Shown: positions 2-19,561, numbered from the stretch's first letter. The stretch is DNA of 19,848 nucleotides from Candidatus Eiseniibacteriota bacterium (GCA_031366795.1 JANLOX010000196.1:1-19848), one strand, 5' to 3'. Notes: generated by a model not told the origin, from the sequence alone. Numbers and translations are program-made.

Positions 2-2203
2 GTGCCGGTGACGTTGCGCGGGGCGGGCTCCACGGCGATGGGTGGCTCGGTGCCGAACGATGGCGGCGTGACGCTGGACCTCGCGCGACTCGACATGATC
101 GACGTCGACGTCGCCTGCGGCACCGCGATCGTCGGCGCCGGGGCGCGGTTGCGCCACGTTCACGAGCGGCTGGCGCAGCGCGGCCTGGCGCTCAAGGTCT
201 ACCCCTCGAACTTGGGCGGAACACTCGCGGGCTGGTTCGTCACGGGTGGCGCGGGGCTCAATGCCTTCAGCCATGGCATCGCGGTCGACTCGGTGCGCAT
301 CGCCGACGTCGTGCTACCCAATGGCGAGCACGTGCGTTTCCACGCCGACGGGCGCATCGATGTCCCGGGCGAGACGCCGCCGCATCGCACCACGCTGGCG
401 GGCGACGTCGCGGCGCAGTGGTTCACCGGCCGCGGCCTGCCGCCGCTCACACTGGGCGATTTCGCCGGTAGCGAGGGCGTATTCGGGTTGGTCCTGCACC
501 TCATGGTCGAGGTGGAACCGCTGGCAGAGATCGGCGCCTTCCTGTTGGCGTTCCGTGATCGCGACGCGGCGCTCGAGGCCGCGCGTTGGATCGCGGCGCA
601 GCCTGCGGACGCCTTCGCAGCGCCCTCGAACCTCAAGTTGTTCACGCAATCGCACTTCCACCACGTCGTGCAGGTATGGCGCGACGAGGATTCGCAGGCG
701 TGGCGCACCCTCGCGCAGGGCGCTTCGACTGGCTTGCCGTGGAAGCGCATCGCGGGGCCGAAGGAACTGGGCGTCGTCAAGGTGAGCGAACACGCGGCGG
801 CGGGTGCGTACCTGTTCGTCGACTTCCATGGCCTCGAGGTGGCGCGCGTCTTCGCGCGAGCTCTCGCGGGCTGCCCCGGTACGCCCTTGGGTCTGGGCGA
901 CGCTTCGGTGCGCTTCGCCGCCGAACGGTTCCGCCCGCAGCAGACGAAGCGGCTGGGACCTGGCATGCTCGCGGCCGAAGTCGTCCTCGCGGGGGACAGG
1001 CTGCGCGATTACCTGCGCGCGGCAGAATCCCTGGCGCGCGGGGTGGGCGTTGCGCTCGACAGCGAGGTGTACTTCCTGCGCGGCGGCGAGGCGTTGGTGA
1101 TCGCCGGCTATCTCACGGACCATCGGCGTGGTTCATTCGCTGTGGACCTCACGCTGGCGCCCGCGCTCACCGATCTGGCGATGCGCCGCTTCGGCGGAAG
1201 GCCCTACGTACTTGGCCGCTGGCAGGCTGCGTGGTTCGAGCGCGCGCTGGGCGCCGCAGCACCGCGCATTCGCGCCGCGCGCACCACGGGCGATCCCGGT
1301 GAATTGCTCAATCGCGGCGTCTACACGGGGCTCAAGCTACGTGGCGCGTTGGGGGGCCTGATGACGAGCACATTCGTTCCCGGCATCGGGCTGCTCTCCG
1401 GCGTCTATGCGTCGCCGCTCGTCTCGTGGATCGTTCGCGGTGTTCGCGGCTTGCTGGCGCTGTTTCCTGGTCCCGCCGCGGGCCATGGCGCCCCGGCGCG
1501 CATCGCCGCGGAGCAACCCGCGAGCGAACACGCCATCCATTGCGTCAATTGCGGCGAGTGCAACAGCGTCTGCCCGATCTTCAGCGAATCGAAGATCCGC
1601 CTGCCGCAGATACTCACGCACATCGGCGAAGCCGTGCATGCGGGCGGCGCCGTGAGCGAGAGTGGCGCCACGCTGCTCGACCTGTGCATGCGCTGCGGTA
1701 ATTGCGAGGAGGTGTGCCAGGCCGGAATCCCGCACCTGTCGCTCTACGAAGGATTGCAGCGCGCCTCGGATGCCGTGCGGCCGCGCGACATCGATCGTCA
1801 CTCCGCGGTCGTCGCCGCGGTGCGCGGCTCGCAGCGCTATCGCGAGGAATTTCTCGATGTGCGTGGCGGCATGTACCTGCGGCGCACGCCCGTGGCGCTG
1901 CCCGGCGTGAACCGGTTCGTGGTGCTGCGCGCCGAGAACGACGCGGGGGCGGAGTCGACGTGCATCCACTGCGGTGCCTGCGTGCCCGTTTGCCCGACCA
2001 ACGCCAACCTCGAATTTGCGGCCGCAGACCCGCGGCTCGTCACCACCGATGAGAGTCGTTGCATCGGTTGCGGCTCGTGCGTCGAGGTGTGCCCGGCCAA
2101 CCAGGCCAACGGCGGCCAGACGCTGCGGGTCATGGAAGCACCGACGCCGGAATGGTTTGTGGCCCTGGAGGAGTTCGAAAAAAACGCAAGCACGAGGCAG
2201 TAG
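2..2203 (+). CDS. FAD-binding (PCMH/VAO-type, GlcD/D-lactate dehydrogenase-like) oxidoreductase fused to four 4Fe-4S ferredoxin motifs; probably 5'-partial
   Basis: FAD_binding_4-type motifs (PVTLRGAGST..GG..P..GGVTLDL, GTLAGW, FAGSEGVFG) and a DPGELLNRG end-of-oxidase motif. These are followed by CVNCGECNSVCP, CMRCGNCEEVC, CIHCGACVPVCP and CIGCGSCVEVCP (1541-2095). The frame starts at the window edge inside the FAD domain; TAG at 2201-2203. Confidence 0.85.
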   Translation: MPVTLRGAGSTAMGGSVPNDGGVTLDLARLDMIDVDVACGTAIVGAGARLRHVHERLAQRGLALKVYPSNLGGTLAGWFVTGGAGLNAFSHGIAVDSVRIADVVLPNGEHVRFHADGRIDVPGETPPHRTTLAGDVAAQWFTGRGLPPLTLGDFAGSEGVFGLVLHLMVEVEPLAEIGAFLLAFRDRDAALEAARWIAAQPADAFAAPSNLKLFTQSHFHHVVQVWRDEDSQAWRTLAQGASTGLPWKRIAGPKELGVVKVSEHAAAGAYLFVDFHGLEVARVFARALAGCPGTPLGLGDASVRFAAERFRPQQTKRLGPGMLAAEVVLAGDRLRDYLRAAESLARGVGVALDSEVYFLRGGEALVIAGYLTDHRRGSFAVDLTLAPALTDLAMRRFGGRPYVLGRWQAAWFERALGAAAPRIRAARTTGDPGELLNRGVYTGLKLRGALGGLMTSTFVPGIGLLSGVYASPLVSWIVRGVRGLLALFPGPAAGHGAPARIAAEQPASEHAIHCVNCGECNSVCPIFSESKIRLPQILTHIGEAVHAGGAVSESGATLLDLCMRCGNCEEVCQAGIPHLSLYEGLQRASDAVRPRDIDRHSAVVAAVRGSQRYREEFLDVRGGMYLRRTPVALPGVNRFVVLRAENDAGAESTCIHCGACVPVCPTNANLEFAAADPRLVTTDESRCIGCGSCVEVCPANQANGGQTLRVMEAPTPEWFVALEEFEKNASTRQ

Positions 2204-2348
2204 AAGTCGATAACATGGCCAGACCTTGAGTGCTGTCTGGGATTCCCTGAGGGGTATTGCGCCCCTGCCGGAGGCCCTTGTCCATCGCCGATTCCGTCGG
2301 GTCCGCTTCACTGAGGGCTCGCCGCAGTCGATCACGAGGAGGTACGAG

Positions 2349-4559
2349 GTGTCAGCTTCAGCGCGCAATACCGCACGTACGGCCGTCAACCAACGGCAAC
2401 CCCGCCGCTTCGATTCGCCCCGCCAGCCCGATGGGCACCGCTCGCCCGTCAGCGCCTACTTCGGCCATCATGTTCTCGACCTGCTGAAGCTCAAGGAGCG
2501 CCTGCCGCGCGAGGTCCACCAGTCGTTGCTTGCCACGCTGCGCAACGGCACGCCACTTACCCGCGAGACGGCTGAGTCGATCGCCTCGGTCGCGCGCGAG
2601 TGGGCGACCTCGCATGGCGCGACGCACTTTACGCACTGGTTCCAGCCGATGACCGGGCTGACTGCCGAGAAACACGACAGCTTCATCGACCTGAACGTGC
2701 AGATGGCGGGCGAGCTCAAGGTGCTCGAGCGCTTCTCGGGGTCGCAGTTGACGCAGGGCGAACCCGACGCCAGTTCGTTTCCCTCCGGCGGCGTGCGCAG
2801 CACGTTCGAAGCGCGCGGTTACACCGCGTGGGACCCGAGCTCGCCGATGTTCCTGGTCGAGAGCGACAACGGCCGCACGCTATGTGTGCCCTCGGTGTTC
2901 ATCAGCTACTACGGCGAGAGTCTCGACCAGAAGACGCCATTGCTGCGAGCCCTCGACGCCGTGAACCGCAACGCCGTGGCGTTTCTCAAGCTGCTCGGCG
3001 ACGTCGACGTGCAGTCGGTCGCGGCCACGTTGGGCTGCGAGCAGGAATACTTCCTCATCGACCGCGACCACTTCTCGCTGCGTGCCGACCTCACGATGTG
3101 CGAGCGCACGCTCGTGGGTGCGGCCTCCTCGCGCGGGCAGCAGTTCGAGGATCACTACTTCGGCTCGATCCCGCCGCGCGTGCTGGCGTTCATGGAAGAG
3201 CTGGAGTTCGAGTTGCACCGGCTCGGCATCCCGGTGAAGACGCGCCACAACGAAGTCGCACCCATGCAGTTCGAGATGGCGCCGATCTTCGAGGACGTCA
3301 ACATCGCCAACGACCACAACGCGCTGTCGATGGACGTCGCGCGCAAGGTGGCGCTGCGGCACCACTTCGTCTGCGTGTTCCACGAGAAGCCGTTCGCCGG
3401 CTTGAACGGCAGCGGCAAACACTGCAACTGGAGCCTCACCACCGACCGCGGCGAGAACCTGCTGGAGCCGGGCCGCACGCCGCACCAGAACCTGCGCTTT
3501 CTAGCCTTCATGGCGGTGTGCTTGAAGGCCGTGCACGATCACTCGATCGCCATCCGCTGGTCGGTGGCGAATGCCAACAACGACCTGCGCCTGGGCGCCA
3601 ACGAAGCGCCGCCGGCGATCCTCAGCGCGTTCGTGGGCGAATTGCTGACGCGGGTGATCGACCAGATCGCCTCGGGTGCTGCGCGCGGGGAAGACCCCGA
3701 GCACTTTGTGCTCGAGATGGGCGTCGGCAAGTTGCCGCAGCTGGCGCGCGACAACACCGACCGCAACCGCACCTCACCGTTTGCCTTTACCGGCAACAAG
3801 TTCGAGTTCCGCGCCGTCGGCAGCTCGGCGAATTGCGCGGGCCCGATGATGATGGTGCTGGGCTCGGTCGCCGACGCGCTGGCGCAGATGGCCACGCGGC
3901 TCAAAGCGCGGCTCACCGGCAACAACCGCGACCAGGCGGTGCTCGACCTGCTGCGCGAGGTGTTCACCGAGACGGCGCCGATTCGCTTCGAGGGCAACGG
4001 CTACAGCGACGAGTGGAAGCAGGAAGCCGCGCGCCGTGGCCTGCCGAACATCCCCGATACGCCCGGCGCCATCGCCGCGATCTCGGACCCCAAGGTCAGC
4101 GCATTCCTCGTCGAGCAGGGTATCTTCTCGGAACGTGAGCTGGCGAGCCGGCTCAATGTGTCGCTCGAGCGCTATGTGAAGACGGTGCTGCTCGAAGCGG
4201 AAACCTTGATCGAAGTGCTCAACACGCAGGTGATTCCGGCGGGTGAGCGCCAGCTCGAGGCGTCGGCCGCGGCGGCCGCGCGGCTTGAAGACGTGAGCGG
4301 CAAGCCGTCCGCGCTCAAGAAGCGCGTCAAGCACGTGGTGGCGTTGCTCGACCAGGTCGTGTCGAGCGCCGAGAAGCTCGAGATGCTCGTCGAGGCGAAC
4401 TCGCATGGTCATGACGAAGCAGCACTGGCGCGGCGGTTGGCCAATGAAGTGCGGCCGGCGATGGATGCGGCGCGTCTTGCGGCCGACGAGCTGGAGCACA
4501 TCGTGAACGACGAGCTGTGGGCGATTCCGAAGTATCGCGAGATGCTCTTCGTAAGGTAG
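2349..4559 (+). CDS. glnA: Glutamine synthetase type III (GlnN-like, about 736 aa)
   Basis: GSIII signatures: ATHFTHWFQPMTG, AEKHDSF, GEPDASSFPSGG.RSTFEARGYTAWDP, EQEYFL, HNEVAP, HEKPFAGLNGSGKHCNWS, RLGANEAPPAI, DRNRTSPFAFTGNKFEFR. Start moved from the ORF-track 2226 to the in-frame GTG at 2349, which follows a strong Shine-Dalgarno GAGGAGGT (2336-2343). Confidence 0.95.
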   Translation: MSASARNTARTAVNQRQPRRFDSPRQPDGHRSPVSAYFGHHVLDLLKLKERLPREVHQSLLATLRNGTPLTRETAESIASVAREWATSHGATHFTHWFQPMTGLTAEKHDSFIDLNVQMAGELKVLERFSGSQLTQGEPDASSFPSGGVRSTFEARGYTAWDPSSPMFLVESDNGRTLCVPSVFISYYGESLDQKTPLLRALDAVNRNAVAFLKLLGDVDVQSVAATLGCEQEYFLIDRDHFSLRADLTMCERTLVGAASSRGQQFEDHYFGSIPPRVLAFMEELEFELHRLGIPVKTRHNEVAPMQFEMAPIFEDVNIANDHNALSMDVARKVALRHHFVCVFHEKPFAGLNGSGKHCNWSLTTDRGENLLEPGRTPHQNLRFLAFMAVCLKAVHDHSIAIRWSVANANNDLRLGANEAPPAILSAFVGELLTRVIDQIASGAARGEDPEHFVLEMGVGKLPQLARDNTDRNRTSPFAFTGNKFEFRAVGSSANCAGPMMMVLGSVADALAQMATRLKARLTGNNRDQAVLDLLREVFTETAPIRFEGNGYSDEWKQEAARRGLPNIPDTPGAIAAISDPKVSAFLVEQGIFSERELASRLNVSLERYVKTVLLEAETLIEVLNTQVIPAGERQLEASAAAAARLEDVSGKPSALKKRVKHVVALLDQVVSSAEKLEMLVEANSHGHDEAALARRLANEVRPAMDAARLAADELEHIVNDELWAIPKYREMLFVR

Positions 4560-4573
4560 TACACACGGAAGAT

Positions 4574-4599
4574 GCGGCGGGCCCATGCGGGTCCGCCGC
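4574..4599 (+). other. Intercistronic GC-rich stem-loop (mRNA stabiliser or weak terminator)
   Basis: GCGGCGGGCCC-ATGC-GGGTCCGCCGC forms an 11-bp stem (one G-U) with a 4-nt loop, 14 nt after the glnA stop. It has no real U-tract, and the RBS AAGGGAG (4608-4614) follows. Confidence 0.6.
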
Positions 4600-4620
4600 C
4601 CGTCTTGAAGGGAGTCGCGC

Positions 4621-7600
4621 GTGACGACAGTTGCCGGCAGCCCGCTGAACGCCGCCGACGCTATCAGCGCGTGGGAAGACGTGCTGACACTCGTGGTCGA
4701 GCCCGAAAGTCCACGCGTCGGTGATCGCGCGCGCGCCCGCAGGCTGCTGAGTTTTCTGTTGCAGCGCGCGGGCGTTGAGGAAGCGGCGTTCTGGGCGCTG
4801 CCGAAGGGGCGGCGTGGGCGGCTGTTCCTGTCGCGCTATTCGCGTGCGGCGCGTGACATCGCGGCACTTGAGATCAGCGCCTTCGATCTCGACAAAGCGT
4901 TGAAGGAACGCTTCCGCGACGAGCCGTTGACGGTCGGCGCACAGTGGCACCATGGTTACTGGCGCTCGTACTTCTCGCACGCCGCGATCACGCACCCGGC
5001 GAACGACGGCCTACGCGAGGAGTTCTCGACCGCGTGGGACATCGTGCGCAAGCACCCGGCGGTGGTGTTCCGCACCGCGACCGGACAGAGCGTCACGACG
5101 CTCAATGCCGTACGTCTCGACCTGCCCATGATCGTCGGACCGCTGCCGCACTCGGACGGCATCACCATGGAGCGGGCCTATCTCGAGGCGATCGCCTCGG
5201 CTGACGCTTCGCACGAACTCCACACGCGCTCGCTGCTGGTGATGGAGTGGGCCTCAGTGCTGGCGGAGTTGCCCGCGTTGCTGCCGCATGCGGCGAACCT
5301 ACTGGCGCGGTTGGGCCCGCGTGATGTGGCGGTGCTCGACGCGCGGGGTGAGGAACCCGAAGCGTTGCGCGACTTCTTGAGCGCCACGCGCGTGGTCGAG
5401 TTGGCGTGGACGCCCACAATCGCAGCGGCGCTTGAGCGCATTCGAGTGCGATTCCCGCGCCTGCTGGTATCAGTATGGATGCGCTATTCCGGCGAAGTGT
5501 GCGGTGCCGCGAACGACGCCGAGGGCGCGCCGCGCGACTTCTGGTTGGCGCTCGAACAGGTCGCGAGTCACGAGGGCGTGGCGCTGATTCACTACCACTC
5601 AGGTGCTACGAAAAGCTACCGGTTGACGCCGCGCATCGACGCCTACTTGAAGGCGCGTTTCCTGCGCGCCCGTGTGCAATTGGTCTCGGCGGGCGGGACG
5701 ACCGACACGCAGGCCTCGGCCGCGACGGTCTACGAGTCCGTGCTGCTCGGCGCCAACGGCGGCGCGATGACGCACATCGCCAGCATCGCGCTCGCGCCGG
5801 GCCTGATCGACGTTCACCACGGTGCCGACCTGGCACCCGTGCACCGGGCGCTGCGCGATGCATCGCCTAAAGCGCTGCGTGATCTCGCAATCCACACGAT
5901 CGGCTGTTGGCAGCACAGCATTCTCGACTTCCTTTCATGCATGGGCATCGACGACATCCAGAAGACCTCGGGCAACACCATGGCGATCACCATGACCGAG
6001 GACTGGATCCGCGACGTGGACGTGCTGGCGACGCGGGAGTTCGGCGAATTGAACGCCGCGCTCAACACGCGCCGCGTGAAGGCCGAGCCGGTGCCGGGAG
6101 CGGTGCGCGATCGCTATCGCGTCAGCGCGCTGCTGCGTGAAGTCACGCCCGACCTGCCGCTGGCGCTCGCAGCACAGGTGCTGGCGCACGAGAACGTGAA
6201 CTTCCACCTGCAGAACACGAACCGCAACCTGAGCGCCGATTTCCTCGACGTCATCTATCGCATGGCCGCGGGCGAGCTACCGCGCGCGGAGGACTTTTTC
6301 ATCGAGAGCGACATGGGAACGATGTCGCTCGATGGTGTCGAGCTCAAGCTGTCGCAGGCGTCGTTGCGCGCGGCGCTCGAACGGCTGCATCGCGAACCGG
6401 AGCTGCTCGACTACATCTCGCTCGCGGTGCCACGCGGCTTCCTGCGGCCGGGCGCTGTGCCCTCAGGCGCGGGTGTCGCGGTGCATCGCGCCATGCCGCT
6501 CGGCGTCTCGCGGGGACCGGGAGAAGTGCTGGCGCAGTTCGACGCGGATGCCACGGGTGGATTCGAGCAATGTTTCGAGCACGGGCACGAGTTGGAAGGC
6601 GCGCTCCGTGACGAGGCGCCCGTGTGGCTCGTGGCGCGCGACGCCGAGGGTGGGGAGACGCGTATCGAGCTCACCGCGTTGGGGCACGGCGGCAAGGGCT
6701 ACACCGTCCTGCGGGCCTCGAGCGATGGCGCGGTGACGCTGCGCCGCGAACCCGCGGGCGGCCTCGTGCTGTCGGGCTTCGGGTTCCGCGAACCGATCTG
6801 GCATGCGCCGGTCAGCCACGCCAGCATTTCACTGGGTGCCGCGTCGGAAGAATTCCTCGTCGCGCGCATCGAGGGCAACGCCGGGTTGGCCATGACCTCA
6901 TCGGGCGAGGGCGGGCCGATCCGGCTCGCCGCGGATTCCGACATGGCGTGGGAGAGCATGCAGGCGGCGAGCGGGCACTTCGGCATTCACGCCGCGGACC
7001 TGCGGCGCGTGCGCGACGTCGAGATCAAGATCAACCAGGGCGCCAAGCCGGGCAAGGGCGGGCGGCTGTCGGGCGCCAAGGTCACGCCGACCGTGAGCAA
7101 GGCGCGCAACATCCCCGCGGGCACGAACGCGCTGTCGCCGGATCCCAAACACGATATCTACTCGATCGAGGATATGCCGGCCGAGGTGTGGATGTGGCTG
7201 CTGTACCGCAATTACTGTGGCATCAAGATCACCGGCTCCAACTACACGCGCTACGTCGCCGCGGGCATGTGGTCGAACTTCGTCGTCGACTACCTGCTCA
7301 TCGACGCCGGCATCGGCGGCTCCGGCAACTACCACGCCGACTCCTCGCACGTTGGCTGGCCTGACATCTTCCGCACCATTCTCCACACGCATCACGCGCT
7401 GGTGGCAGAGAAGGTCGATCTCGAGCGCACCGGCGAGCTCACGACCATTCGCGACATGAACGGCAGTCCATTTGGCGCACAGGGCGGCACGCGCCTGTTC
7501 GCCTCGGGCGGCCTGCGCGGTGAACTCGACATGATCAAGGTGTTGATCGCCGGAGCCGATGGGCTGGTCGAGGCGAGCATCGGCAAGGCCGTGGCATTTG

Positions 7601-10600
7601 GCTGCAACCAGTGCGGCAACTGCCATCTCGATTGCCCGCGCGGTGGCATCACCACGAAGGCCGAGCTGACGGTGCAGAACGACCGCGCGCTGATGCGGCA
7701 GCGGTTCCGCAACTGGACGGCGCTCAACATGGTGAAGCTCGCGGTGATCATCGACGCGCTCAATATCGAGAGCGGGGCGCTCTCCGCGGACGGCGTCGTG
7801 GCGCACCGCGACCGTTTGATTGATGACATCCGCCAACTGCGCGGCCGGACAGACTTGCTCGATATGCCCAAGCACCCCGCCGCGGCTGAGCCGGCGCCGC
7901 CCGCGGAAGCCGCAGCCGCGGAACACGACTCGTGCCGCGTCGGCTCGCTTGCCGTCTCCGAGCCCGTGACGATTGAGGCGATCTGGGAATCTGCGCGCCG
8001 CTCCTACAACGGCGGCAACAATCGCGGCGGCGGCATCGATTTCGCGGGATTTGCTCCCACGCCGCTGCGCGATCGCGCCTGCCTCGTGTTCAACACCATC
8101 GGCCCGGACCGCGCCGACACCATGCGCGAGATGCTGGGCCACCTGGCGGGTTGTGCGGTGTTCGATGCCCTCGGTCACGAGATCCCCGCCGCTCAAGTCG
8201 CAACGCGCCTCGATGAGTTCCGCCTGCCCGTGCGCGAGCGCTACGACTCCGAATTCGGCTGGCGCGATGCCGGGTTACGCGAGAATCCTGGCGACGTCTA
8301 CACTTTGTTCGTCGAGCCGCGTGCGGACGTGATGTCGCGCTATGCCGCGACCCTGCTCGACAGCCCGCACTGGCTGCAGCGGCGGACGAAGTATGGCGAC
8401 CTGAAGTCCGAATTGATGTTGGCAGCGATGGCCGGCCTCGACGCCGCGCGCGCCGCGATGGCAACCGCGGGGGCGACCGCCGACGCCACGACGCTCGAGC
8501 GGCTGGCCGCCTTCGCGACCGACGTGCGCGAGGAATACTTCACGGCACTCGCGCACCTGATCGATTCACGCTACTACCGCACCCATGCACCTGCGGGCTC
8601 GCCGCCGCCCCCGGGCAAGTACGCCGCCAAGCGGCGTGGCTTCGTGGTGTCGATGGGCGAGGATCTCGCCGCCGTCAAGATGTCGGGCTGGACGCACACG
8701 ATCCCCGAGTACTTCGACTTCGACCGCTTCTGGGCGAACTATCCCGGCGCGCGCGAGCAGGGCGGCATCAACGTTACGCAGAAGGGCCGTACCTTTCGCA
8801 CCACCGCGCTGCACGCGCATGTGTGGGGAATGCATCATCGCTACCCCACGAATTCGCCGGCGATCGATGCGGAAGGCCGTGGCAATCCCGCGGGTGCCCA
8901 CCCCTTCAAGGGCTACAACGTGCTGCTGATGCACAACGGCGAGCAGGTCGCGGTCGACTCGACCGCGCCGTTCCTCAGTGAATTCGGCTACGTGCACGGC
9001 GATGAGAGCATGGGTGAGGGGCACGCGTTGGTGCACGGCGACTCGGTCTACGAGCGCAAGGCGCTGACGGACACGGAGTACGCCGCCTACCTCGTCGACT
9101 TTACGCGGCGTGTGCTGGGCCTGAGCACCGAGGATGCGAGCCAGGTGATCTCGCCCATCACGGGGATCGATCTCGCCGCGATGGACGAGGAGCGCCGCAT
9201 CCGGCTCAAGGCGCTGATGACGAACTACGTCCAGCTCACGCCGACAGGCCCCTACAAGTTCACCATCGTGGAGTCGCGCGGGCGCACGCTCGTCGATCCG
9301 GCCAACGGCCGCGTCACCCACGAGCGTCGCGTCGGCTTCCGCGAGAACATGGACATCAAGTTCCTGCGCCCGCACGAAATTGCGGTGTCGGTCGACTCCG
9401 CCGCGGGCGGCGTGCACGCCGTCGCCAACGGGAGTGAGGCGAAAATCGCCGACAGCATGCTGCGTACGCTGCACGCCCAGGGCGTGCTGGCCGACGTCGG
9501 CAGCGACCTGCGCTTCAGCATGCGGCCAGGCGGGAATCCGGGGCGGCGCGACTTCGGTGGTGTCGTCGAAGCATTCACCGTGCGCGGCAGCGGGCGCATC
9601 GATCTGCGCAATCGCTTTGGCGAAAGCGTTGAAGTCGAGCGCTCTGGCGTGAAGGTCGACCTGGCCGTCCCGCTGGAGCGCGCAATCCAATCAGCGCGTC
9701 CTGTGTGGATCGGGCTGTGCGACGAGCGGCTGCGCCAGTTGAGCTCCGTGCTGTCCGGGGCCGGCGGCATCTCGCGCGGGCGCCTGTTCGGACCCGATGA
9801 CCTGCTGCCCGCCGCCGCGAACGAATTGATCGAGGTCGTGCTCGACCAGGCGCGCACGCTGACGTTCGAGGACGTGCGCTACCTGACCGAGCTCGCTCTG
9901 CCGCTATTCGCGCGCAATGGCGATGCCTTCCGCGCCGCTGCCCTGCGCGTGCTCACGGAGCTCCGCAAGCGGCTCACGCTTTGCGATCTCGGTGGCAAGG
10001 CGCTCTCCAGCGTGGAGTACCTGGTGGACGGCGGGCGCTCGGGCCAGGGGGCCGCGGAGGGCGGCATCGTTCGCGTGCTCGACGAGGTGCCCGCGCTGCA
10101 CGAGGCGCTCGTGAAGGCGAATCCCGGCGGCCCCCGCTATGGCCGGCTGACGCTTGCGACGCGCGACGATCTCTCAGGCCCGGGCGATGCCGCGCGCGAC
10201 GTGCTGGTGATCGACTTCGCCGGGTTCGAGAGCGAGTCGTTCGGACTCGATTCCGCTTCCCGCATCGTCAGCGCCGCCGTGCGCATGGGCTGGCGCAACA
10301 TCATCGGCTACGGCTTCATCGGCGGCCCGCGCTACGTGGGAACGAATCTCGCAGGCCTCGATGGGACGGCCGCGCGTGGTGTCGTCATCGAACTCTACGG
10401 CAGCGAATTCGGCGACTTCATCGGCGCGCTGCTCGAGGGCGGCACGCAGGTGTGGGTCTACGGTCAGGGGCAGAGCCACGTCGGCATGAAGGCGGACGAG
10501 GGCTACCTGTTCGTGCTGCAGGACGCGTTGAACACCTGCATGTACGCAGCGCACGGCGGCACGATCAGCGTGTGGGAGACGGGCTCACGCTTCGCCGTTG

Positions 10601-11130
10601 CCGGCCAGAACAAAGTGCTCGCCGCCGATGGCAAGACGCTGGCGCAGGGCTTCAAGTCGATCCACTTCGGCTCACCGAATGAGTACGCCTTCGAATACCT
10701 GATGGCCGGCGGCGACAATTCGCTGCACGTCGTGATGGGACTGCGCAAGCCCAACGCGCAGGGCGAGCTGTCGCTCAAGTCGCGGCCGTACGGCGGTAAG
10801 TTCTTCATGTCGGGCGCAGCCGCGGGCCGCGTGTTCGTGTTCGACCCGAATGTCGCGCTGCTGGCTGCGCAGTACCACGGCAACGTGCTGTCCTCGATCC
10901 CGCCGCAGGAATGGGCGAAGGAAGTAGCACCGTTCATCGCGACCGAAGCGAAGCGCCGCGGCCTGCCGATTCGGATCGACGGCGAATACCTGACGATGCG
11001 GCTTGAGGGCCAGTGGCGCCGTTGGCGTTACGACGAGGCGTTCGCGCGGCTCGTGCCCATTGCGGTGTCGAAGGCGGCGGAACAGCAAGGCCTGACTGCC
11101 CCCTCGCTGGTGCAGATCGTGGGGGAGTAG
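4621..11130 (+). CDS. Glutamate synthase large-subunit (GltB)-related multidomain protein with permuted order: central-like/degenerate barrel, FMN-binding synthase domain, class II (Ntn) glutamine amidotransferase, GXGXG domain
   Basis: FMN domain: SSGEGG, EIKINQGAKPGKGGRLSGAKV (7021-7083), SPDPKHDIYSIED, ASGGLR..LIAGAD, and cluster motif CNQCGNCHLDCP (7603-7638). Amidotransferase: EHDSCRVG (7921-7944), NRGGG, HHRYPTN (8833-8853), AHPF, HNGE (8932-8943), TDTE, GPY, DIKFLRP. Glycine-repeat C-terminus: ELYGSEFGDFIGALLEGG..VYGQGQSHVG..AHGG..MSGAAAGRVFV. RBS AAGGGAG lies 6 nt before the GTG. Confidence 0.88.
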   Translation: MTTVAGSPLNAADAISAWEDVLTLVVEPESPRVGDRARARRLLSFLLQRAGVEEAAFWALPKGRRGRLFLSRYSRAARDIAALEISAFDLDKALKERFRDEPLTVGAQWHHGYWRSYFSHAAITHPANDGLREEFSTAWDIVRKHPAVVFRTATGQSVTTLNAVRLDLPMIVGPLPHSDGITMERAYLEAIASADASHELHTRSLLVMEWASVLAELPALLPHAANLLARLGPRDVAVLDARGEEPEALRDFLSATRVVELAWTPTIAAALERIRVRFPRLLVSVWMRYSGEVCGAANDAEGAPRDFWLALEQVASHEGVALIHYHSGATKSYRLTPRIDAYLKARFLRARVQLVSAGGTTDTQASAATVYESVLLGANGGAMTHIASIALAPGLIDVHHGADLAPVHRALRDASPKALRDLAIHTIGCWQHSILDFLSCMGIDDIQKTSGNTMAITMTEDWIRDVDVLATREFGELNAALNTRRVKAEPVPGAVRDRYRVSALLREVTPDLPLALAAQVLAHENVNFHLQNTNRNLSADFLDVIYRMAAGELPRAEDFFIESDMGTMSLDGVELKLSQASLRAALERLHREPELLDYISLAVPRGFLRPGAVPSGAGVAVHRAMPLGVSRGPGEVLAQFDADATGGFEQCFEHGHELEGALRDEAPVWLVARDAEGGETRIELTALGHGGKGYTVLRASSDGAVTLRREPAGGLVLSGFGFREPIWHAPVSHASISLGAASEEFLVARIEGNAGLAMTSSGEGGPIRLAADSDMAWESMQAASGHFGIHAADLRRVRDVEIKINQGAKPGKGGRLSGAKVTPTVSKARNIPAGTNALSPDPKHDIYSIEDMPAEVWMWLLYRNYCGIKITGSNYTRYVAAGMWSNFVVDYLLIDAGIGGSGNYHADSSHVGWPDIFRTILHTHHALVAEKVDLERTGELTTIRDMNGSPFGAQGGTRLFASGGLRGELDMIKVLIAGADGLVEASIGKAVAFGCNQCGNCHLDCPRGGITTKAELTVQNDRALMRQRFRNWTALNMVKLAVIIDALNIESGALSADGVVAHRDRLIDDIRQLRGRTDLLDMPKHPAAAEPAPPAEAAAAEHDSCRVGSLAVSEPVTIEAIWESARRSYNGGNNRGGGIDFAGFAPTPLRDRACLVFNTIGPDRADTMREMLGHLAGCAVFDALGHEIPAAQVATRLDEFRLPVRERYDSEFGWRDAGLRENPGDVYTLFVEPRADVMSRYAATLLDSPHWLQRRTKYGDLKSELMLAAMAGLDAARAAMATAGATADATTLERLAAFATDVREEYFTALAHLIDSRYYRTHAPAGSPPPPGKYAAKRRGFVVSMGEDLAAVKMSGWTHTIPEYFDFDRFWANYPGAREQGGINVTQKGRTFRTTALHAHVWGMHHRYPTNSPAIDAEGRGNPAGAHPFKGYNVLLMHNGEQVAVDSTAPFLSEFGYVHGDESMGEGHALVHGDSVYERKALTDTEYAAYLVDFTRRVLGLSTEDASQVISPITGIDLAAMDEERRIRLKALMTNYVQLTPTGPYKFTIVESRGRTLVDPANGRVTHERRVGFRENMDIKFLRPHEIAVSVDSAAGGVHAVANGSEAKIADSMLRTLHAQGVLADVGSDLRFSMRPGGNPGRRDFGGVVEAFTVRGSGRIDLRNRFGESVEVERSGVKVDLAVPLERAIQSARPVWIGLCDERLRQLSSVLSGAGGISRGRLFGPDDLLPAAANELIEVVLDQARTLTFEDVRYLTELALPLFARNGDAFRAAALRVLTELRKRLTLCDLGGKALSSVEYLVDGGRSGQGAAEGGIVRVLDEVPALHEALVKANPGGPRYGRLTLATRDDLSGPGDAARDVLVIDFAGFESESFGLDSASRIVSAAVRMGWRNIIGYGFIGGPRYVGTNLAGLDGTAARGVVIELYGSEFGDFIGALLEGGTQVWVYGQGQSHVGMKADEGYLFVLQDALNTCMYAAHGGTISVWETGSRFAVAGQNKVLAADGKTLAQGFKSIHFGSPNEYAFEYLMAGGDNSLHVVMGLRKPNAQGELSLKSRPYGGKFFMSGAAAGRVFVFDPNVALLAAQYHGNVLSSIPPQEWAKEVAPFIATEAKRRGLPIRIDGEYLTMRLEGQWRRWRYDEAFARLVPIAVSKAAEQQGLTAPSLVQIVGE

Positions 11131-11137
11131 CGGACGC

Positions 11138-12067
11138 ATGGGTGCTTCCACGAGACCGCCGGTCATCGAAGTCTCCCACTTGCGCAAGACCTACGGGTCC
11201 ACGGTGGCCGTCGAAGATGTCTCGTTCGAGGTGTACGCGGGGGAGATCTTCGGCCTGATCGGGCCCAACGGCGCCGGCAAGACCACGACGATGGAGTGCA
11301 TCGAGGGCATCCGGAGGCCCGATGGCGGCGCGATGTCCATTCTCGGGCTCGATCCGCGACGCGACGCCCATGCGCTGCAGAACCGCATCGGCGTGCAGCT
11401 CCAGCAGGCGCAATTGCAGAAGCGGATTCGTGTCTGGGAGGCGGTGGATCTGTGGTCGTCGCTCTACCCGCGTTCCGTCGATGGGCGTGTCCTACTCGAG
11501 CAGCTCGGGCTCACGGAGAAGCGCAACGCCTCGTTCATGAGCCTGTCCGGCGGCCAGAAGCAGCGGCTGTTCGTGGCACTCGCGCTGATCAACGACCCCG
11601 AGGTGGTGTTCCTCGATGAGCTGACGACGGGCCTCGACCCGCAGGCGCGACGGGCGATCTGGGATCTCGTCATGGGGATTCGCAGCCGCGGGAAGACCGT
11701 GTTTCTCACCACGCACCTGATGGAAGAAGCCGAGCGGTTGTGCGATCGCGTGGCGATCATCGAACACGGCAAGCTGATCGAGCTCGGCGCCCCAGCGGAG
11801 CTCGTGCGCAAGCATTGCCCGCAACGCGGTGTCGTGTTCTCGAGCGACCGGCAAGGTCTCACGCCCGAGCTCGAGCGGATTCCCGGCGTCGACTCGGTGC
11901 AGGCGGCGGACTCGAGCTACACCGTCGAGGGCCGCGGGGATGCATTCGTCACCGAAGTCATCCGCTTCATCGCCGAGCAACAACTCACCGTGCGTGACTT
12001 CAGAACCGTGTTCCCGACGCTCGAGGATGTCTTCCTTAAGCTCACGGGCCACGGGATCAGGGACTGA
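11138..12067 (+). CDS. ABC transporter ATP-binding protein (ABC-2/DrrA-like exporter)
   Basis: Walker A GPNGAGKTT, signature LSGGQ, Walker B VVFLDE plus D-loop LD, H-loop TTH. Starts 7 nt after the giant gene. Confidence 0.95.
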   Translation: MGASTRPPVIEVSHLRKTYGSTVAVEDVSFEVYAGEIFGLIGPNGAGKTTTMECIEGIRRPDGGAMSILGLDPRRDAHALQNRIGVQLQQAQLQKRIRVWEAVDLWSSLYPRSVDGRVLLEQLGLTEKRNASFMSLSGGQKQRLFVALALINDPEVVFLDELTTGLDPQARRAIWDLVMGIRSRGKTVFLTTHLMEEAERLCDRVAIIEHGKLIELGAPAELVRKHCPQRGVVFSSDRQGLTPELERIPGVDSVQAADSSYTVEGRGDAFVTEVIRFIAEQQLTVRDFRTVFPTLEDVFLKLTGHGIRD

Positions 12068-12819
12068 TGACCATGGTACGTGGACTGTTCAAGCTGACCC
12101 TGCTCGAGATCAAGATCTTCGTGCGCGAGCCACTCGGGTTCGTCGGGACCGTGCTGATCCCGGTCGCGATGTTCCTGCTGCTCGGGCGCACATTCAGCTC
12201 GAACGGGGATCATTCCACGCAGGGCGCGCAGCTGCTAACTCAACGCCTTCCCATCTTCGCCACGGTGTTCATCGCCATCAGCGCCGCGCTTTCGCTGGTG
12301 TCGGTCATCTCGATCTACCGCGAGGGCGGCATTCTCAAACGCCTGCGCGCCACGCCGCTGCGTCCCGCCGTCATCCTGGGCGCGCACGTTCTCGTGAAGC
12401 TGCTGTTCACCGGGCTGTCGCTGGGGCTCATGGCGCTGATGGGAAGGCGCTTCCTCCCGGCCGGTTTCGAACCGCATCTCATGGGCTTCTCGCTCGCAGT
12501 GGCGTTGAGCACTCTGGCGATCCTCAGCATGGGTTTCGTCATCGCCAGCATCGTCCCCACCGCGCGGTTCGCCCAGCCCATCGGCAGCGCGATCCTCTAC
12601 CCGATGCTCGCGCTCTCCGGAATGTTCGTACCGTTGGAGGCGTTCCCCAAAGGATGGGCGATGCTCGGCAATCTGTTGCCGGTCACCCATGCGGTGTCGC
12701 TCATTCAGGGCGCGTGGGTGGGCGCACCGTGGCTCGAGTTATTGCCCCATGCCGGCGTGCTCGTGCTGACGATCGCCGTGTGCCTCGTGCTGACCAACAG
12801 GGTGTTTCGCTGGGAATAA
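12067..12819 (+). CDS. ABC-2 type transporter permease
   Basis: About six hydrophobic segments; YREGGILKRLRATP and LSGMFVP..P motifs typical of ABC-2 membrane subunits. TGATG stop/start overlap with the ATPase gene. Confidence 0.93.
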   Translation: MTMVRGLFKLTLLEIKIFVREPLGFVGTVLIPVAMFLLLGRTFSSNGDHSTQGAQLLTQRLPIFATVFIAISAALSLVSVISIYREGGILKRLRATPLRPAVILGAHVLVKLLFTGLSLGLMALMGRRFLPAGFEPHLMGFSLAVALSTLAILSMGFVIASIVPTARFAQPIGSAILYPMLALSGMFVPLEAFPKGWAMLGNLLPVTHAVSLIQGAWVGAPWLELLPHAGVLVLTIAVCLVLTNRVFRWE

Positions 12820-12927: not shown

Positions 12928-14907
12928 GTGATTGAAAGACTGAAGAGTTGGCTGATCGGTGGGCGGAAGAATCTCTTCGACCCGCAGATTCACCACCAAC
13001 TTGCGTTAATCGCTTTCTTTGCCTGGGTCGGCCTCGGTTCTGACGGTCTGTCGTCATCCTCCTACGGCCCCGAAGAAGCATTCCTGGCACTCGGCCACCA
13101 TTCCCACCTCGCCCTCTACCTGGCGGTGGCGATGGTGCTCACCGTATTTCTTATCTCCGCCTCCTATAGCCAGATTATCGAGCAGTTCCCGGGCGGCGGT
13201 GGTGGCTACCTCGTCGCGACCAAGCTGCTGGGACCGACGATGGGTGTCATCTCGGGAGGCGCGCTGGTCGTCGACTACATGCTGACGGTCGCTACCTCGG
13301 TCGCCTCAGGTTGTGATGCGATCTATTCATTCCTGCCGGCCGGGATGCATGGCACCAAATTGATCTCGGAATTTTTCGTGATCGGCGGCCTCACCGCGCT
13401 CAACCTGCGCGGGGTCAAGGAATCGGTAAAGACTCTCGTTCCCATCTTTATCGCGTTCGTGATCACCCACCTGGCGCTGATCCTGTACGGCATCTTCTCG
13501 CACGGGCAGGCACTGGGTTCGCTCACGGTGGATACCATCAACGATACGCACCTTGCGATTCAGGAATTGGGGACGTTGGGAGTGCTGGCCATCTTCCTGC
13601 GCGCGTTCTCGCTGGGCGGCGGGACGTTCACCGGAATCGAGGCTGTGAGCAATGGCGTGCAGATCCTGCGCGAGCCGCGCGTTCACACGGCGAAGAAGAC
13701 GATGCTCTACATGGCGACGTCGCTGAGCTTCACGGCGGGTGGCATCCTGCTGTGCTACCTGCTCAACGATGTCCATCACACGGCAGGCCAGACGCTCAAT
13801 GCCTCGCTGTGGAGCCAGCTGACGCAACACTGGCACATCGGCCGGTTCCAGTTGTCCCCCTTGGTCACCGGCATCACGTTGTTGTCCGAGGGTCTGCTGC
13901 TGTTTCTCGCGGCCCAAACCGGTTTCATCGACGGCCCGAGAACCCTGTCGGTCATGGCGGTCGATCATTGGGTGCCGAAGCGATTCGCGCATCTGTCCGA
14001 GCGGCTGGTTACCCAGAACGGCATCCTCATCATGGCCGCCGCCACGATCGTCGTTCTTGGCTACACGCACGGCGACGTGCGCCTGCTCGTCGTGATGTAC
14101 TCGATCAACGTGTTCATCACGTTCACGCTATCCCAGATGGGAATGGTGCGGCACTGGTGGCAGGTGCGGAAGACTGTCCCGCATTGGCGCCGCGCTTTCC
14201 TGCTCGCGGTGGTGGGAACCCTCGTTACCGGAACCATCCTGATCATTACGTCGGTGGTGAAGTTCGGCGAAGGCGGATGGGTAACGCTGGTCGCGACCGG
14301 CATATTCGTCGGGCTCTGCTTTCTCGTGCGCACGCACTACGATCACGTGCGCAATGTGCTTCGGCATCTCGACGAACAGCTTACCAACCTGCCCATGTCC
14401 ACGCCCGCGGTGAGCCCCGCCTTAGTCCCCGAGGGTCCGACGGCGGTCGTGCTGGTCGAGTCCTATGCGGGGCTGGGCATCCACACGCTGCTCTCGGTTC
14501 ACCGGATGTTCCCGCGCCATTTCAAGAACTACGTCTTTGTGTCGGTCGGGCAGGTCGATTCCGGGCAGTTCAAGGGCGCCGAGGCCATTGAAGCACTCGG
14601 GCTCCAGTGCCGCGACAGCCTCGAGCGATATGTTGAGCTGGCGAACCAGATGGGTTGCTATGCCGAGTCTCGCTACGCGGTGGGTACGGATCTCATCGAA
14701 GAGCTCGAGCGCATGACGCTGGTGCTGACCAAGGAGTTCCGGCGCACCATCGTGTTTGCCGGGCAACTCGTGTTCCAGCGCGAAACCATCTTCACCCGGG
14801 CGCTGCACCATGAGACGGCATTTTCAATCCAGCGCCGCCTGCAGTTCGCCGGCATCCAGGTCATCATTCTTCCGATCAGGGTCTGGGAGCAGCATCGATC
14901 CGCTTAA
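12928..14907 (+). CDS. APC-superfamily permease, KimA/YdaO-like (putative K+ or amino-acid transporter) with soluble C-terminal domain
   Basis: About 12 hydrophobic segments. Motifs DGLSSSSYGPEE, GGGGYLVA, ALVVDYMLTVATSVASG, LNLRGVKES and LRAFSLGGGTFTGIEAVSNG resemble the YdaO/KimA family. Ends in an alpha/beta cytoplasmic tail. Confidence 0.85.
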   Translation: MIERLKSWLIGGRKNLFDPQIHHQLALIAFFAWVGLGSDGLSSSSYGPEEAFLALGHHSHLALYLAVAMVLTVFLISASYSQIIEQFPGGGGGYLVATKLLGPTMGVISGGALVVDYMLTVATSVASGCDAIYSFLPAGMHGTKLISEFFVIGGLTALNLRGVKESVKTLVPIFIAFVITHLALILYGIFSHGQALGSLTVDTINDTHLAIQELGTLGVLAIFLRAFSLGGGTFTGIEAVSNGVQILREPRVHTAKKTMLYMATSLSFTAGGILLCYLLNDVHHTAGQTLNASLWSQLTQHWHIGRFQLSPLVTGITLLSEGLLLFLAAQTGFIDGPRTLSVMAVDHWVPKRFAHLSERLVTQNGILIMAAATIVVLGYTHGDVRLLVVMYSINVFITFTLSQMGMVRHWWQVRKTVPHWRRAFLLAVVGTLVTGTILIITSVVKFGEGGWVTLVATGIFVGLCFLVRTHYDHVRNVLRHLDEQLTNLPMSTPAVSPALVPEGPTAVVLVESYAGLGIHTLLSVHRMFPRHFKNYVFVSVGQVDSGQFKGAEAIEALGLQCRDSLERYVELANQMGCYAESRYAVGTDLIEELERMTLVLTKEFRRTIVFAGQLVFQRETIFTRALHHETAFSIQRRLQFAGIQVIILPIRVWEQHRSA

Positions 14908-16955: not shown

Positions 16956-17088
16956 TGCGTGTTTCGGTCCATCGTGAACACCCGTTTCGGTCCATCGTGA
17001 ACAGTCATTTCGGGATCGTGAACACCCAAAACGGCATCGTGAACAGCCGTTTCGGCATCGTGAACACCTAGATCGGTGATCGTGAACA
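16956..17088 (+). repeat. IS21 left-end tandem transposase-binding repeats (6 copies)
   Basis: Core ATCGTGAACA at 16971, 16994, 17015, 17036, 17057 and 17079 (period 21-23 nt). Confidence 0.9.
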
Positions 17089-17177
17089 GGCCACGCTGCC
17101 CCTGATGGGGTGGGTGTCTGGGAGAGAAGCGGCGCTGGGAGGTCCAGTCGTCTATCCGCCCCCATGGAGGGGGTGGG

Positions 17178-18716
17178 ATGGCGACCGAGCGACTGACCAT
17201 GCGCAAGATCCGCGAAATACTTCGGCACAAGTGGGCCCTGGGCCGCAGCCACCGCGATGTGGCGGCGAGCCTGTCGGTGAGCATCGGCGCCGTCTCGGCC
17301 GCCGAGCAGCGTGCGCGACGTGCCGGGCTCGACTGGGGCACCGTCGAGGGGCTGAGCGACGAAGCGCTGGAGCTCGCCTTCTACGGCGTGCTGGCAAGCG
17401 ATCGTCACCGGTCGCTGCCCGACCCTGCGACGTTGCACGCCGAACTGAAGCGCAAGGGCGTCACGCTGCAGTTGCTTCACCTCGAGTATCGCGAGCGGCA
17501 CGCCGACGGCTACGGGTACACGCAGTTCTGCGATCACTACCGGCGCTGGTGCCAGGATCGCCGGCTGTCGATGCGGCAGGTCCATCACGCGGGCGAGAAA
17601 CTGTTCGTCGACTACGCGGGCAAGAAACCCGAGATCGTCGATCCCGCAACGGGCGAGGTTCGCGAAGTCGAGTTGTTTGTCGCCGTGCTCGGCGCTTCGA
17701 ACTACACGTTCGCAGAAGCCACGCACACCCAGCAGATCGTCGACTGGATCCAGAGCCACGTTCACGCGCTGGAGTACGTGGGCGGCGTGACCCACGCCAT
17801 CGTGCCTGACCAGCTGAAGACCGGCATCACCGGCGCGTGCCGCTACGAGCCCGAGATCCAGCGCAGCTACGAAGAGCTGGCGCTGCACTACGGCACCGTG
17901 ATCCTGCCCGCGCGCCCGGCCTCACCGCGCGACAAGGCCAAGGTCGAAGTTGCCGTACAGATCGCCGAGCGATGGATCCTCGCGCGCCTGCGCAACGAGA
18001 CCTTCTTCTCGCTGGCCGAGCTCAACCTCAGGATCCGCGAGTTGCTGGAGGAACTCAACGGCCGCGTCATGCGCCACTATCGCGCCAGTCGCCGCACGCT
18101 GTTCGAGCAACTCGACCAGCCCGCACTGAAGCCCCTGCCCGCCACGCGCTACGAGCACGCGCTGTGGAAGTTCGTGCGCGCCGGCATCGACTATCACGTC
18201 GAACTCGCCGGCCACTACTACAGCGTGCCGTTCACGCTGCGCGGGCAACGGCTCGAGTTGCGGCACACCGCGACCACCGTCGAGGTCTTGCACAAAGGCC
18301 AGCGTGTTGCCTCGCATGTGCGAAGCGTCACGCGCGGCCGTCACACGACAGTGACCGCGCACATGCCGAAGAGCCATCAGGCGCACCTCGAGTGGTCGCC
18401 CGATCGCATCGTGCGTTGGGCCCAGAGCATCGGCCCGCAGACGCGCACGCTGGTCGAGGCAATCCTCGCCGATCGCCCGCATCCCGAGCAGGGCTACCGC
18501 TCCTGTCTCGGCATCCTCCGCTTGGGCAAACGCTACGGCGAACCCCGCCTCGAGGCTGCGTGCACGCGTGCCGTCGCCGTGCGCGCGCGTTCCTACCGTC
18601 ACGTCGAATCAATCTTGAAGCATGGACTCGACCGGGTGCCCGCCCCGGACGCGAGCCCGCGAGGCGCCGTCGCCGTCTCGCACGTCAACCTGCGCGGCCG
18701 CGACTACTACCGTTAA
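17178..18716 (+). CDS. istA: IS21 family transposase
   Basis: N-terminal HTH (MRKIREILR), GYGYTQFC, DDE residues in FVDYAG, VPDQLK and KAKVE, plus YYSVP and HPEQGYRSCLG. RBS GGAGG upstream. Confidence 0.96.
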   Translation: MATERLTMRKIREILRHKWALGRSHRDVAASLSVSIGAVSAAEQRARRAGLDWGTVEGLSDEALELAFYGVLASDRHRSLPDPATLHAELKRKGVTLQLLHLEYRERHADGYGYTQFCDHYRRWCQDRRLSMRQVHHAGEKLFVDYAGKKPEIVDPATGEVREVELFVAVLGASNYTFAEATHTQQIVDWIQSHVHALEYVGGVTHAIVPDQLKTGITGACRYEPEIQRSYEELALHYGTVILPARPASPRDKAKVEVAVQIAERWILARLRNETFFSLAELNLRIRELLEELNGRVMRHYRASRRTLFEQLDQPALKPLPATRYEHALWKFVRAGIDYHVELAGHYYSVPFTLRGQRLELRHTATTVEVLHKGQRVASHVRSVTRGRHTTVTAHMPKSHQAHLEWSPDRIVRWAQSIGPQTRTLVEAILADRPHPEQGYRSCLGILRLGKRYGEPRLEAACTRAVAVRARSYRHVESILKHGLDRVPAPDASPRGAVAVSHVNLRGRDYYR

Positions 18717-18729
18717 CGGAGGAACCCCG

Positions 18730-19473: not shown

Positions 19474-19494
19474 ACCCCCGGCGTCGCTTCGCTC

Positions 19495-19561
19495 CGTTCA
19501 CGATGCCCGAAACGGGTGTTCACGATCCCGAAACAGCTGTTCACGATGACCGAAATGCGCA
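19495..19561 (-). repeat. IS21 right-end inverted repeats (3 copies)
   Basis: (T/C)GTTCACGAT at 19495, 19517 and 19538, the reverse complement of the left-end core. Confidence 0.9.

Follow-up and report, generated by a model that had tools for sequence, protein, structure and literature searches.

The window analysed here is the whole 19,848-nt stretch of DNA from Candidatus Eiseniibacteriota bacterium (GCA_031366795.1 JANLOX010000196.1:1-19848), in which one open frame (4621..11130, +) encodes a 2169-aa glutamate-synthase-like precursor. On balance, this giant protein is probably a glutamate-synthase-type enzyme, predicted to be cut before Cys1105 into two chains that likely remain associated with a GltB-like geometry. 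It likely converts glutamine and 2-oxoglutarate to glutamate, and a neighbouring flavin adenine dinucleotide (FAD)/iron-sulphur (Fe-S) flavoprotein, not NADPH through GltD, would supply the electrons. The giant has the inventory of GltB, namely a live barrel, a dead barrel, an amidotransferase and a helix. Cleavage is predicted to free Cys1105 as an N-terminal nucleophile, which would hydrolyse glutamine; the ammonia would then reach 2-oxoglutarate at the flavin mononucleotide (FMN), with the dead barrel in the role that the central domain has in GltB. Electrons would pass from FAD through the four [4Fe-4S] clusters of the partner flavoprotein to a cluster at C995-C1005 of the giant and on to FMN. 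Rather than NAD(P)H, our guess for the other substrate of the partner is a membrane quinol or a carrier of similar, middle potential. In the source genome, the enzyme would work with the type III glutamine synthetase (GSIII) of the same gene run. Forward synthesis is the best reading because all known enzymes with such sites work forward and a glutamine synthetase (GS) is linked to the gene here; it is further supported by synthase and glutamine-site residues that are invariant in 120 of 120 homologues and by a constant partner gene.

The giant gene is real and widely conserved, and is no artefact. Its 2169 codons form one uninterrupted frame, as the original prediction stated. The frame has no internal stops, and its G+C content at third codon positions is even throughout (0.77-0.94). 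The homologue search scored 7992 candidates and returned 591 matches; residue counts refer to the best 120 of these 591, one of which is the window's own cluster. Among these best 120, 116 chains are at least 2000 aa long and 118 carry the FMN loop, the Cys and the helix on one chain. The 90% cluster has nine members, of 2169 aa in seven cases and 2172 aa in one, with a 332-aa piece as the ninth. The record titles of 53 GTDB loci are mostly Eisenbacteria, and Thermoleophilia/Actinomycetota, Planctomycetota and Krumholzibacteriia also occur. The nearest of these loci is an Eisenbacteria metagenome-assembled genome (93%), and the named carriers encountered are all uncultured. A sample of 20 other Actinomycetota genomes yielded no member of the family.

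An assembly or frameshift artefact that fuses separate genes, a doubt voiced with the original prediction, has a probability close to nil. Breaks are present in six of the 53 loci (several frameshifts in L016, L035 and L037, with one of the L037 breaks in the linker; one frameshift in L014 and in L038; in L006, an N-terminal part that holds an in-frame stop), but their positions differ between loci. All three markers stand in a single frame at 36 loci, contig ends cut 14 more, and scattered frameshifts affect three. In run X1, possibly the source sample itself, one contig extends over 4400-11279; it differs by 15 substitutions and is free of gaps. The junction between the FMN and amidotransferase parts (7860-7935), which the original prediction had singled out for a read-level check, is also spanned gap-free by contigs of X2, X3 and X4, and so in four of four runs. 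The single-chain form of the 118 homologues and the 2169-aa length of most cluster members answer the same doubt. A search for shorter split forms of the giant family returned only apparent contig-end or frameshift pieces, with no clean split among those examined. The in-frame stop of L006 (~9237) falls near giant residue 125, in an operon that is otherwise intact and includes GSIII.

The FMN/2-oxoglutarate synthase barrel (residues 721-1083; 6781..7869, +) is identified by Pfam, hhalign and motifs. Pfam Glu_synthase matches residues 729-946 (E 3.4e-44), and hhalign pairs the barrel with E. coli GltB (99.2%, E 9e-20). The motifs SGEGG, GAKPG, DIYSIED and GG are present, and Lys803, Lys812, Glu850 and Lys869 are kept in 120/120 homologues, as in an FMN/2-oxoglutarate synthase site. 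The synthase barrel and these motifs are shared, at ~30% identity, with the GltB/GltD enzymes of Azospirillum brasilense (1ea0, 2vdc, 6s6s), B. subtilis (7mfm) and E. coli. A C995-x2-C998-x2-C1001-x3-C1005 Fe-S motif (7603..7635, +) has all four Cys in 120/120 aligned homologues, compared with three Cys at the same place in E. coli GltB.

Residues 82-457 (4864..5991, +) are, on model superposition, a weak profile match and alignment, a second synthase-type barrel that is catalytically dead. Placed over 1ea0, the model of this segment fits the synthase domain (789-1160) with Z 16.9 and a root-mean-square deviation of 3.7 Å over 281 residues. Its best fold matches are glutamate synthases, and in 1ea0/2vdc the part to which it aligns is likewise the synthase domain (789-1160). 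In the alignment it has neither the GAKPG loop nor the Fe-S cysteines, and its profile matches gene 2 of a split form of the operon weakly (best E 2.7e-5). The barrel was placed by a fold search of residues 82-457 themselves; the model of the whole N-terminal half is poor in the FMN barrel, Foldseek with that model returned generic barrels only, and ESM Atlas matches for residues 1-720 were all below 0.9 and serve as leads only. GltB also contains a second, inactive barrel, but the inactive barrel of the giant resembles the synthase domain and not the GltB central domain. Since in GltB the synthase domain and the central domain together form the wall of the ammonia tunnel, according to the sections consulted of PMC8097209, the dead barrel may take the role of the central domain. 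Between the two barrels, a helical connector (residues 458-611) and a beta-rich insertion (residues ~612-720), located together at 5992..6780 (+) by model and alignment, have no Pfam match and stand where split genes have a ferredoxin and a connector.

The class II (N-terminal nucleophile, Ntn) glutamine amidotransferase domain (7933..9645, +) begins at Cys1105 and was recognised by its fold and conserved residues; Pfam gives no amidotransferase match in the giant, and NCBIfam and a PDB sequence search miss it as well. An AlphaFold model of residues 1100-2169 (mean predicted local distance difference test score, pLDDT, 78; predicted template modelling score 0.84) matches glutamate synthases first, and then GlmS and PurF. 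Model residue 6, which is Cys1105 (nt 7933), aligns to Cys1 of all three, and the modelled domain has an Ntn fold with the Cys at the start of strand 1. The best structural match of this half is the Synechocystis ferredoxin-dependent glutamate synthase (1ofd, 1ofe, 1llw), which superposes from Cys1105 on Cys1 through the end of the beta-helix (574 residues, 3.6 Å, Z 17.2), in a model that may lean on GltB structures in its training data. The amidotransferase and the GXGXG beta-helix appear in this model to keep their GltB relative position, though the two intervening GltB barrels are absent here. Cys1105, Arg1407, Asn1439, Gly1440 and Asp1484 are present in 120/120 homologues and provide the glutamine-binding Arg, the oxyanion Asn-Gly and the Asp. 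The amidotransferase profile matches GATase_6-bearing split genes; taking the strongest segment in every gene, E values run from 5e-6 to 6e-12. A helical linker domain (9646..10185, +), seen in the model, is common to the split amidotransferase-GXGXG genes of 860-920 aa. It is followed by the GXGXG beta-helix and a C-terminal tail (10186..11127, +), assigned by fold, profiles and a Pfam match on the fragment that is weak (E 0.017, below the cut-off); the helix profile matches GXGXG-bearing split genes at 1e-14 to 1e-26. In hhalign, the C-terminal half aligns to E. coli GltB over the helix only (probability 2.7%). The Pfam scan suggested with the original prediction thus recovers Glu_synthase, with no GATase or Glu_syn_central match in the giant protein and GXGXG below the cut-off.

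An Ala/Pro-rich linker that ends in EHDS (7870..7932, +) precedes Cys1105, and motif conservation predicts cleavage directly before the Cys. In the 120 homologues, the linker is 14-94 aa long (median 20) and ends in (E/D)(H/R)DS followed by C-R-V, with E/D and D1103 in all 120 and H/R and S1104 in 119 each. E. coli GltB has ERDN right before its Cys, after an 11-residue leader; in Azospirillum GltB, the full-length chain exceeds the mature one by 36 aa, and B. subtilis numbering begins at 22. Split genes have leaders of 12-58 aa with EGG before the Cys in 118/120, and six other fused proteins have an internal D/N-x-C-G-V or x-D-C-G-V that follows a charged linker. In B. subtilis GltA, amidotransferase chemistry is performed by the N-terminal cysteine (10.1101/2021.04.12.439528, in part), and Ntn enzymes need an exposed N-terminal nucleophile that is made from a precursor, usually by self-cutting, as stated for threonine enzymes in part of PMC11947121. 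Because Cys1105 follows a propeptide-like motif and superposes on Cys1 of GltB, the giant chain is likely cleaved before Cys1105 into subunits of ~1104 and ~1065 aa. B. subtilis-type PurF and other Ntn precursors (1ao0, 1ecb) have the same fold (Z 10-12) and the same need of a free N-terminal nucleophile, whereas the 'propeptide' of the giant comprises 1104 residues and is itself a synthase subunit. The label 'single-chain' in the original prediction holds in that one frame encodes all domains, but it is probably true of the precursor only, since a Cys that acts as N-terminal nucleophile is unable to function at an internal position.

Compared with GltB, which has the same kinds of parts, including an amidotransferase Cys nucleophile behind a cleavable leader (cleavage being predicted in the giant), the domain order differs. 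GltB runs amidotransferase, central, FMN and GXGXG, whereas the giant runs dead barrel, FMN, amidotransferase and helix, with the Cys internal. The proposed order of FMN synthase, amidotransferase and GXGXG, and the coordinates given for it, agree with Pfam Glu_synthase, the fold matches and the split-gene profiles. As the original prediction held, the giant differs from canonical GltB: NCBIfam GltB (NF008730) scores 82.6 bits against a cut-off of 1047. A simple circular permutation of GltB would place the helix before the amidotransferase and was rejected. The giant further differs from GltB in its four-Cys cluster motif, its extra beta-rich and helical domains and an Arg-to-Gly change in the glutaminase site, and an FAD-oxidase-type partner, instead of GltD, adjoins it. 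The ferredoxin-dependent enzyme resembles the giant in having no NAD(P)H subunit, but has the canonical order and a free ferredoxin donor, whereas the Fe-S wire of the giant is on a dedicated flavoprotein. The sections consulted of PMC8097209 list NADPH, NADH and ferredoxin forms and mention archaeal single-domain genes, and the giant form is absent from them. Our literature search, which covered sources other than subscription papers and supplements, found no description of the giant architecture or of its flavoprotein partner, in line with the original prediction, which knew of no characterised enzyme with this architecture.

The partner flavoprotein gene (2..2203, +), assigned by Pfam, is cut at its 5' end by the contig and encodes ~880 aa in relatives; a stretch that matches the missing N-terminus lies on G000:C7 (L070). 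The protein comprises FAD_binding_4, the FAD-oxidase C-terminal part, an amphipathic segment, a 2x[4Fe-4S] Fer4_8 domain and a C-terminal 2x[4Fe-4S] ferredoxin. It is encoded upstream in 38/38 loci that include the start of the giant (hand count, with GSIII in between in four), and was found in 7/7 carrier and 0/14 non-carrier genomes tested. The amphipathic helix (residues 470-490 of the partner fragment), which precedes the Fe-S domains, hints in its sequence at membrane contact. The partner has FAD_binding_4 with FAD-oxidase_C in common with FAD-dependent 2-hydroxyacid dehydrogenases, and its closest solved relatives are D-lactate-type dehydrogenases (LctD match, E 6e-21). This fold is common to LctD and the D-lactate, glycolate and D-2-hydroxyglutarate dehydrogenases (7qh2, 8jdb, 9qgz, 6lpn), whereas the partner has four Fe-S clusters and the amphipathic segment in addition. 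Pro-Tyr-Val-Leu-Gly-Arg-Trp occurs in 28/29 partners, in a weak stretch of the alignment that anchors only the Gly; Pro-Tyr-Val-Leu-Gly stands where, we presume, LctD-type enzymes have a catalytic Glu-His. The substrate of the partner is probably different from that of the D-lactate-type dehydrogenases.

The partner likely replaces GltD as the electron input. No GltD stands alongside the giant; the GltD-like gene of G000 is on another contig, and GltD-like domains near the giant occur only in seven Actinomycetota loci, downstream, on the other strand and inside another module. This module (L033, L037, L038, L046, L048, L049, L052; 2-9 kb downstream on the opposite strand, e.g. L037:23408-26587 - and L048:4500-6329 -) contains a NuoF/HydB-like gene, a 1060-aa fusion of 2Fe-2S, GltD-like, ferredoxin and thiamine-pyrophosphate domains, and a 2-oxoacid:ferredoxin oxidoreductase alpha gene, and looks like an electron-bifurcating oxoacid oxidoreductase. 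When 1.84 billion representatives were searched with a profile of the partner, 266 matched, of which 150 were listed. Among the matches listed, the flavoprotein, barrels, amidotransferase and helix are joined in chains of 2508-3152 aa (P0400, P0445, P0455, P0492, P0435), each a single-member cluster. Together with P0433, these are single chains of 2204-3152 aa of the same system, five of which include the flavoprotein; in P0435, the amidotransferase and helix come first, followed by the flavoprotein and barrels.

The closest relatives of the giant's amidotransferase, helix and partner are in split operons with the same parts in the same order. The split form occurs in 8 of the 151 phylum genomes sampled (L057-L064) and runs FAD/Fe-S gene, (ferredoxin) dead barrel, (ferredoxin) FMN barrel and a leader-bearing amidotransferase-GXGXG gene of 860-920 aa. 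The two barrels are fused in three cases, and two-barrel genes of 968 and 982 aa represent partly fused states. The domain order of the giant is the gene order of these operons, and its amidotransferase and GXGXG profiles match split genes, not E. coli GltB. In split operons, gene 2 begins with the domain that forms the last ferredoxin of the partner; relative to these operons, the giant has one ferredoxin moved to the partner, one lost, and a dead barrel without cysteines. Split (archaeal-type) genes carry the domains separately, whereas the giant is a single frame. The last split gene is common, with matches in 7610 of the 7998 candidates scored (distant relatives included) and with Thermalbibacter longus (WP_284056709.1) as a cultured carrier; a plasmid search with a split gene gave weak GATase matches only. 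The amidotransferase and GS/carrier trees are quick trees. In the former, which is unrooted, the giants lie on a long branch of their own, separate from the split genes and from two other fused lineages, with the warning that long branches meet. The original prediction of an independent fusion of split-type subunits stands as far as order and parts go; fusion as against fission, and independence, are possible readings of an unrooted tree that holds other fused lineages. In G083, the dead-barrel gene (L061:10072-11754, -) contains a tandem repeat of ~seven GLPGGA units inside the barrel.

Several observations weigh against a forward glutamate synthase driven by the flavoprotein. The FMN barrel is modelled poorly (pLDDT <50 over 760-914), and the flavoprotein is seen in 4/8 split loci within the stretch fetched. 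The FMN of Azospirillum is at about -240 mV (PMC8097209, sections consulted), a potential that is uphill from quinol and at which quinone is a good acceptor. Gly1131 occupies, in 120/120 giants, the position of the Arg after the first helix (QHRG in E. coli GltB), which split genes keep in 117/120, and the glutamine loop of the giants has a 6-residue insertion; the glutaminase site is thus altered. Invariant Arg1135, four residues after Gly1131, may be a stand-in. The same changes, with the long branch and the missing Pfam GATase match, could also indicate that the amide or amine comes from a different donor, or that the chain stays uncut and its silent amidotransferase leaves the enzyme on free ammonia (N-methylglutamate-synthase-like or dehydrogenase-like). 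N-methylglutamate synthase MgsABC uses methylamine and has three small subunits, encoded in a cluster for methylamine use. We regard such a different donor or uncut chain as very unlikely: Cys1105, its upstream motif and the glutamine-binding residues are invariant in 120/120, unlike a dead site, and no methylamine genes were found among recurrent neighbours (13 of 41 recurrent clusters scanned).

The distribution of GS in carriers also fits a glutamine-consuming enzyme badly. Among the 151 phylum genomes, 26 giant carriers were picked by score band and frame length (G120, with a 200-aa fragment of a different match pattern, was left out). A Gln-synt_C match is absent in 19 of the 26, as is GSIII_N, and a twentieth, G150, has a weak GS-like match only; GS is absent in 3/8 split carriers and 2/117 genomes with neither form (G015, with GS and without the giant, is counted here). 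Because the carrier genomes are kin, these counts do not amount to a statistical test. The GS-less carriers are 80-100% complete and include three 100%-complete genomes and one single-contig genome. This pattern is a point for the reverse reaction, which would oxidise one glutamate at FMN, keep the ammonia in the tunnel and use it at Cys1105 to amidate another glutamate (2 Glu give Gln, 2-oxoglutarate and 2 electrons), with electrons passed via the flavoprotein to quinone. GS-bearing and GS-less carriers are interleaved on the quick tree, and the family GSIII looks inherited (the five in-operon GSIII and two non-carriers together make up a single clade of 7 rows, support 94); both observations suggest that carriers lost GS repeatedly. 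A Glu/Leu/Phe/Val dehydrogenase is present in 35/35 genomes tested, PurF is kept in 8/8 and AmtB in 4/8 GS-less carriers tested, and no hidden GS or PII was found among 36 of 62 open reading frames scanned near amtB. The altered glutaminase site and the futalosine-pathway and heme-copper oxidase genes of G000 point the same way. Arithmetic on free energies puts the reverse couple at -0.06 to -0.09 V; menaquinone is at about -0.07 V, and a quinone-linked enzyme could be reversible because the two are so close.

Against reversal, most carriers come from one family and are not independent, and outside that family most keep GS (e.g. 12/14 Actinomycetota loci, 3/3 Planctomycetota loci). In two genomes, G090 and G143, neither GS nor the giant or split system was found, and GSIII is inside the gene run here. 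We know of no class II amidotransferase in which free glutamate forms the thioester fast enough to be of use. hisH is missing in 6/8 GS-less carriers and 8/13 GS-bearing non-carriers; this loss fits glutamine import, since carriers that lack hisH would take up amino acids. A self-cleaving, quinone-linked glutamate synthase run backwards, as a second glutamine route that lets many Eisenbacteria lose GS, is thus a possibility that we consider unlikely.

Canonical GltB was not found in G000 or in 18 of 22 other carriers, which supports the favoured role; in the remaining four, all Thermoleophilia, it stands next to glnA, a point against that role. It is nearly absent from the 151 phylum genomes (one clear case, G126), most of which have GS and no recognisable glutamate synthase. 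Forward chemistry on imported glutamine as a catabolic electron sink, in which glutamine hydrolysis together with glutamate dehydrogenase would move mid-potential electrons to NAD+, explains the GS-less carriers with dehydrogenases, the carriers with canonical GltB and the partial amino-acid auxotrophy. This role is quite unlikely: GSIII or an NAD synthetase adjoins the operon in several genomes, a sign of a role in supplying nitrogen; a cell unable to produce glutamine would hardly be expected to waste it; and no glutamine transporter is a constant neighbour. The biosynthetic, forward glutamate synthase remains the reading we prefer.

In the window, GSIII (2226..4559, +; Pfam GSIII_N, E 4e-68) lies between the flavoprotein and the giant, a position it takes in the window and at 4 of 38 loci. 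The genes of this run are spaced by 22 and 61 bp. No sigma-70 promoter was found and terminator-like sites are fewer than in shuffles, so that co-transcription is read from the spacing alone. In G123, whose operon is partly fused, GSIII is likewise the gene immediately upstream of it, and a glutamine-dependent NAD synthetase gene (L058:13725-15464, -) is directly upstream of the partly fused operon of G108, which has no GS match. Downstream of the giant, the window contains an ABC-2 exporter pair (11138-12819), followed by a 659-aa APC-family permease with a soluble C-terminal domain (12928-14907; AA_permease_2, E 5e-14), which is not a recurrent neighbour. A cytochrome P450 gene (15490-16710) and an IS21-type element (istA/istB; 17178-19473) flanked by repeated short motifs (~17020-17100, ~19480-19560) are also present. 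A rhomboid protease gene is upstream in 12 Eisenbacteria loci (L003, L004, L006, L007, L011, L012, L017, L018, L022, L024, L027, L042), probably as plain synteny.

The giant family and its split relatives point to an FAD-oxidase-type Fe-S flavoprotein as a further electron input to glutamate synthases, the known ones of which are fed by NAD(P)H via GltD or by ferredoxin (PMC8097209, sections consulted). The leader of the precursor would be a whole catalytic subunit, an arrangement that would fix the two halves at 1:1, and four, three, two and one genes make a natural series for the assembly of the complex enzyme. Since Pfam and NCBIfam recognise the FMN part only, metabolic reconstructions miss the giant enzyme. 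The system may change nitrogen handling in carrier bacteria. If the reverse reaction were true and combined with glutamate dehydrogenase, it would yield glutamine without ATP and make GS dispensable; if the giant can make glutamine, GS would no longer be the sole route to it.

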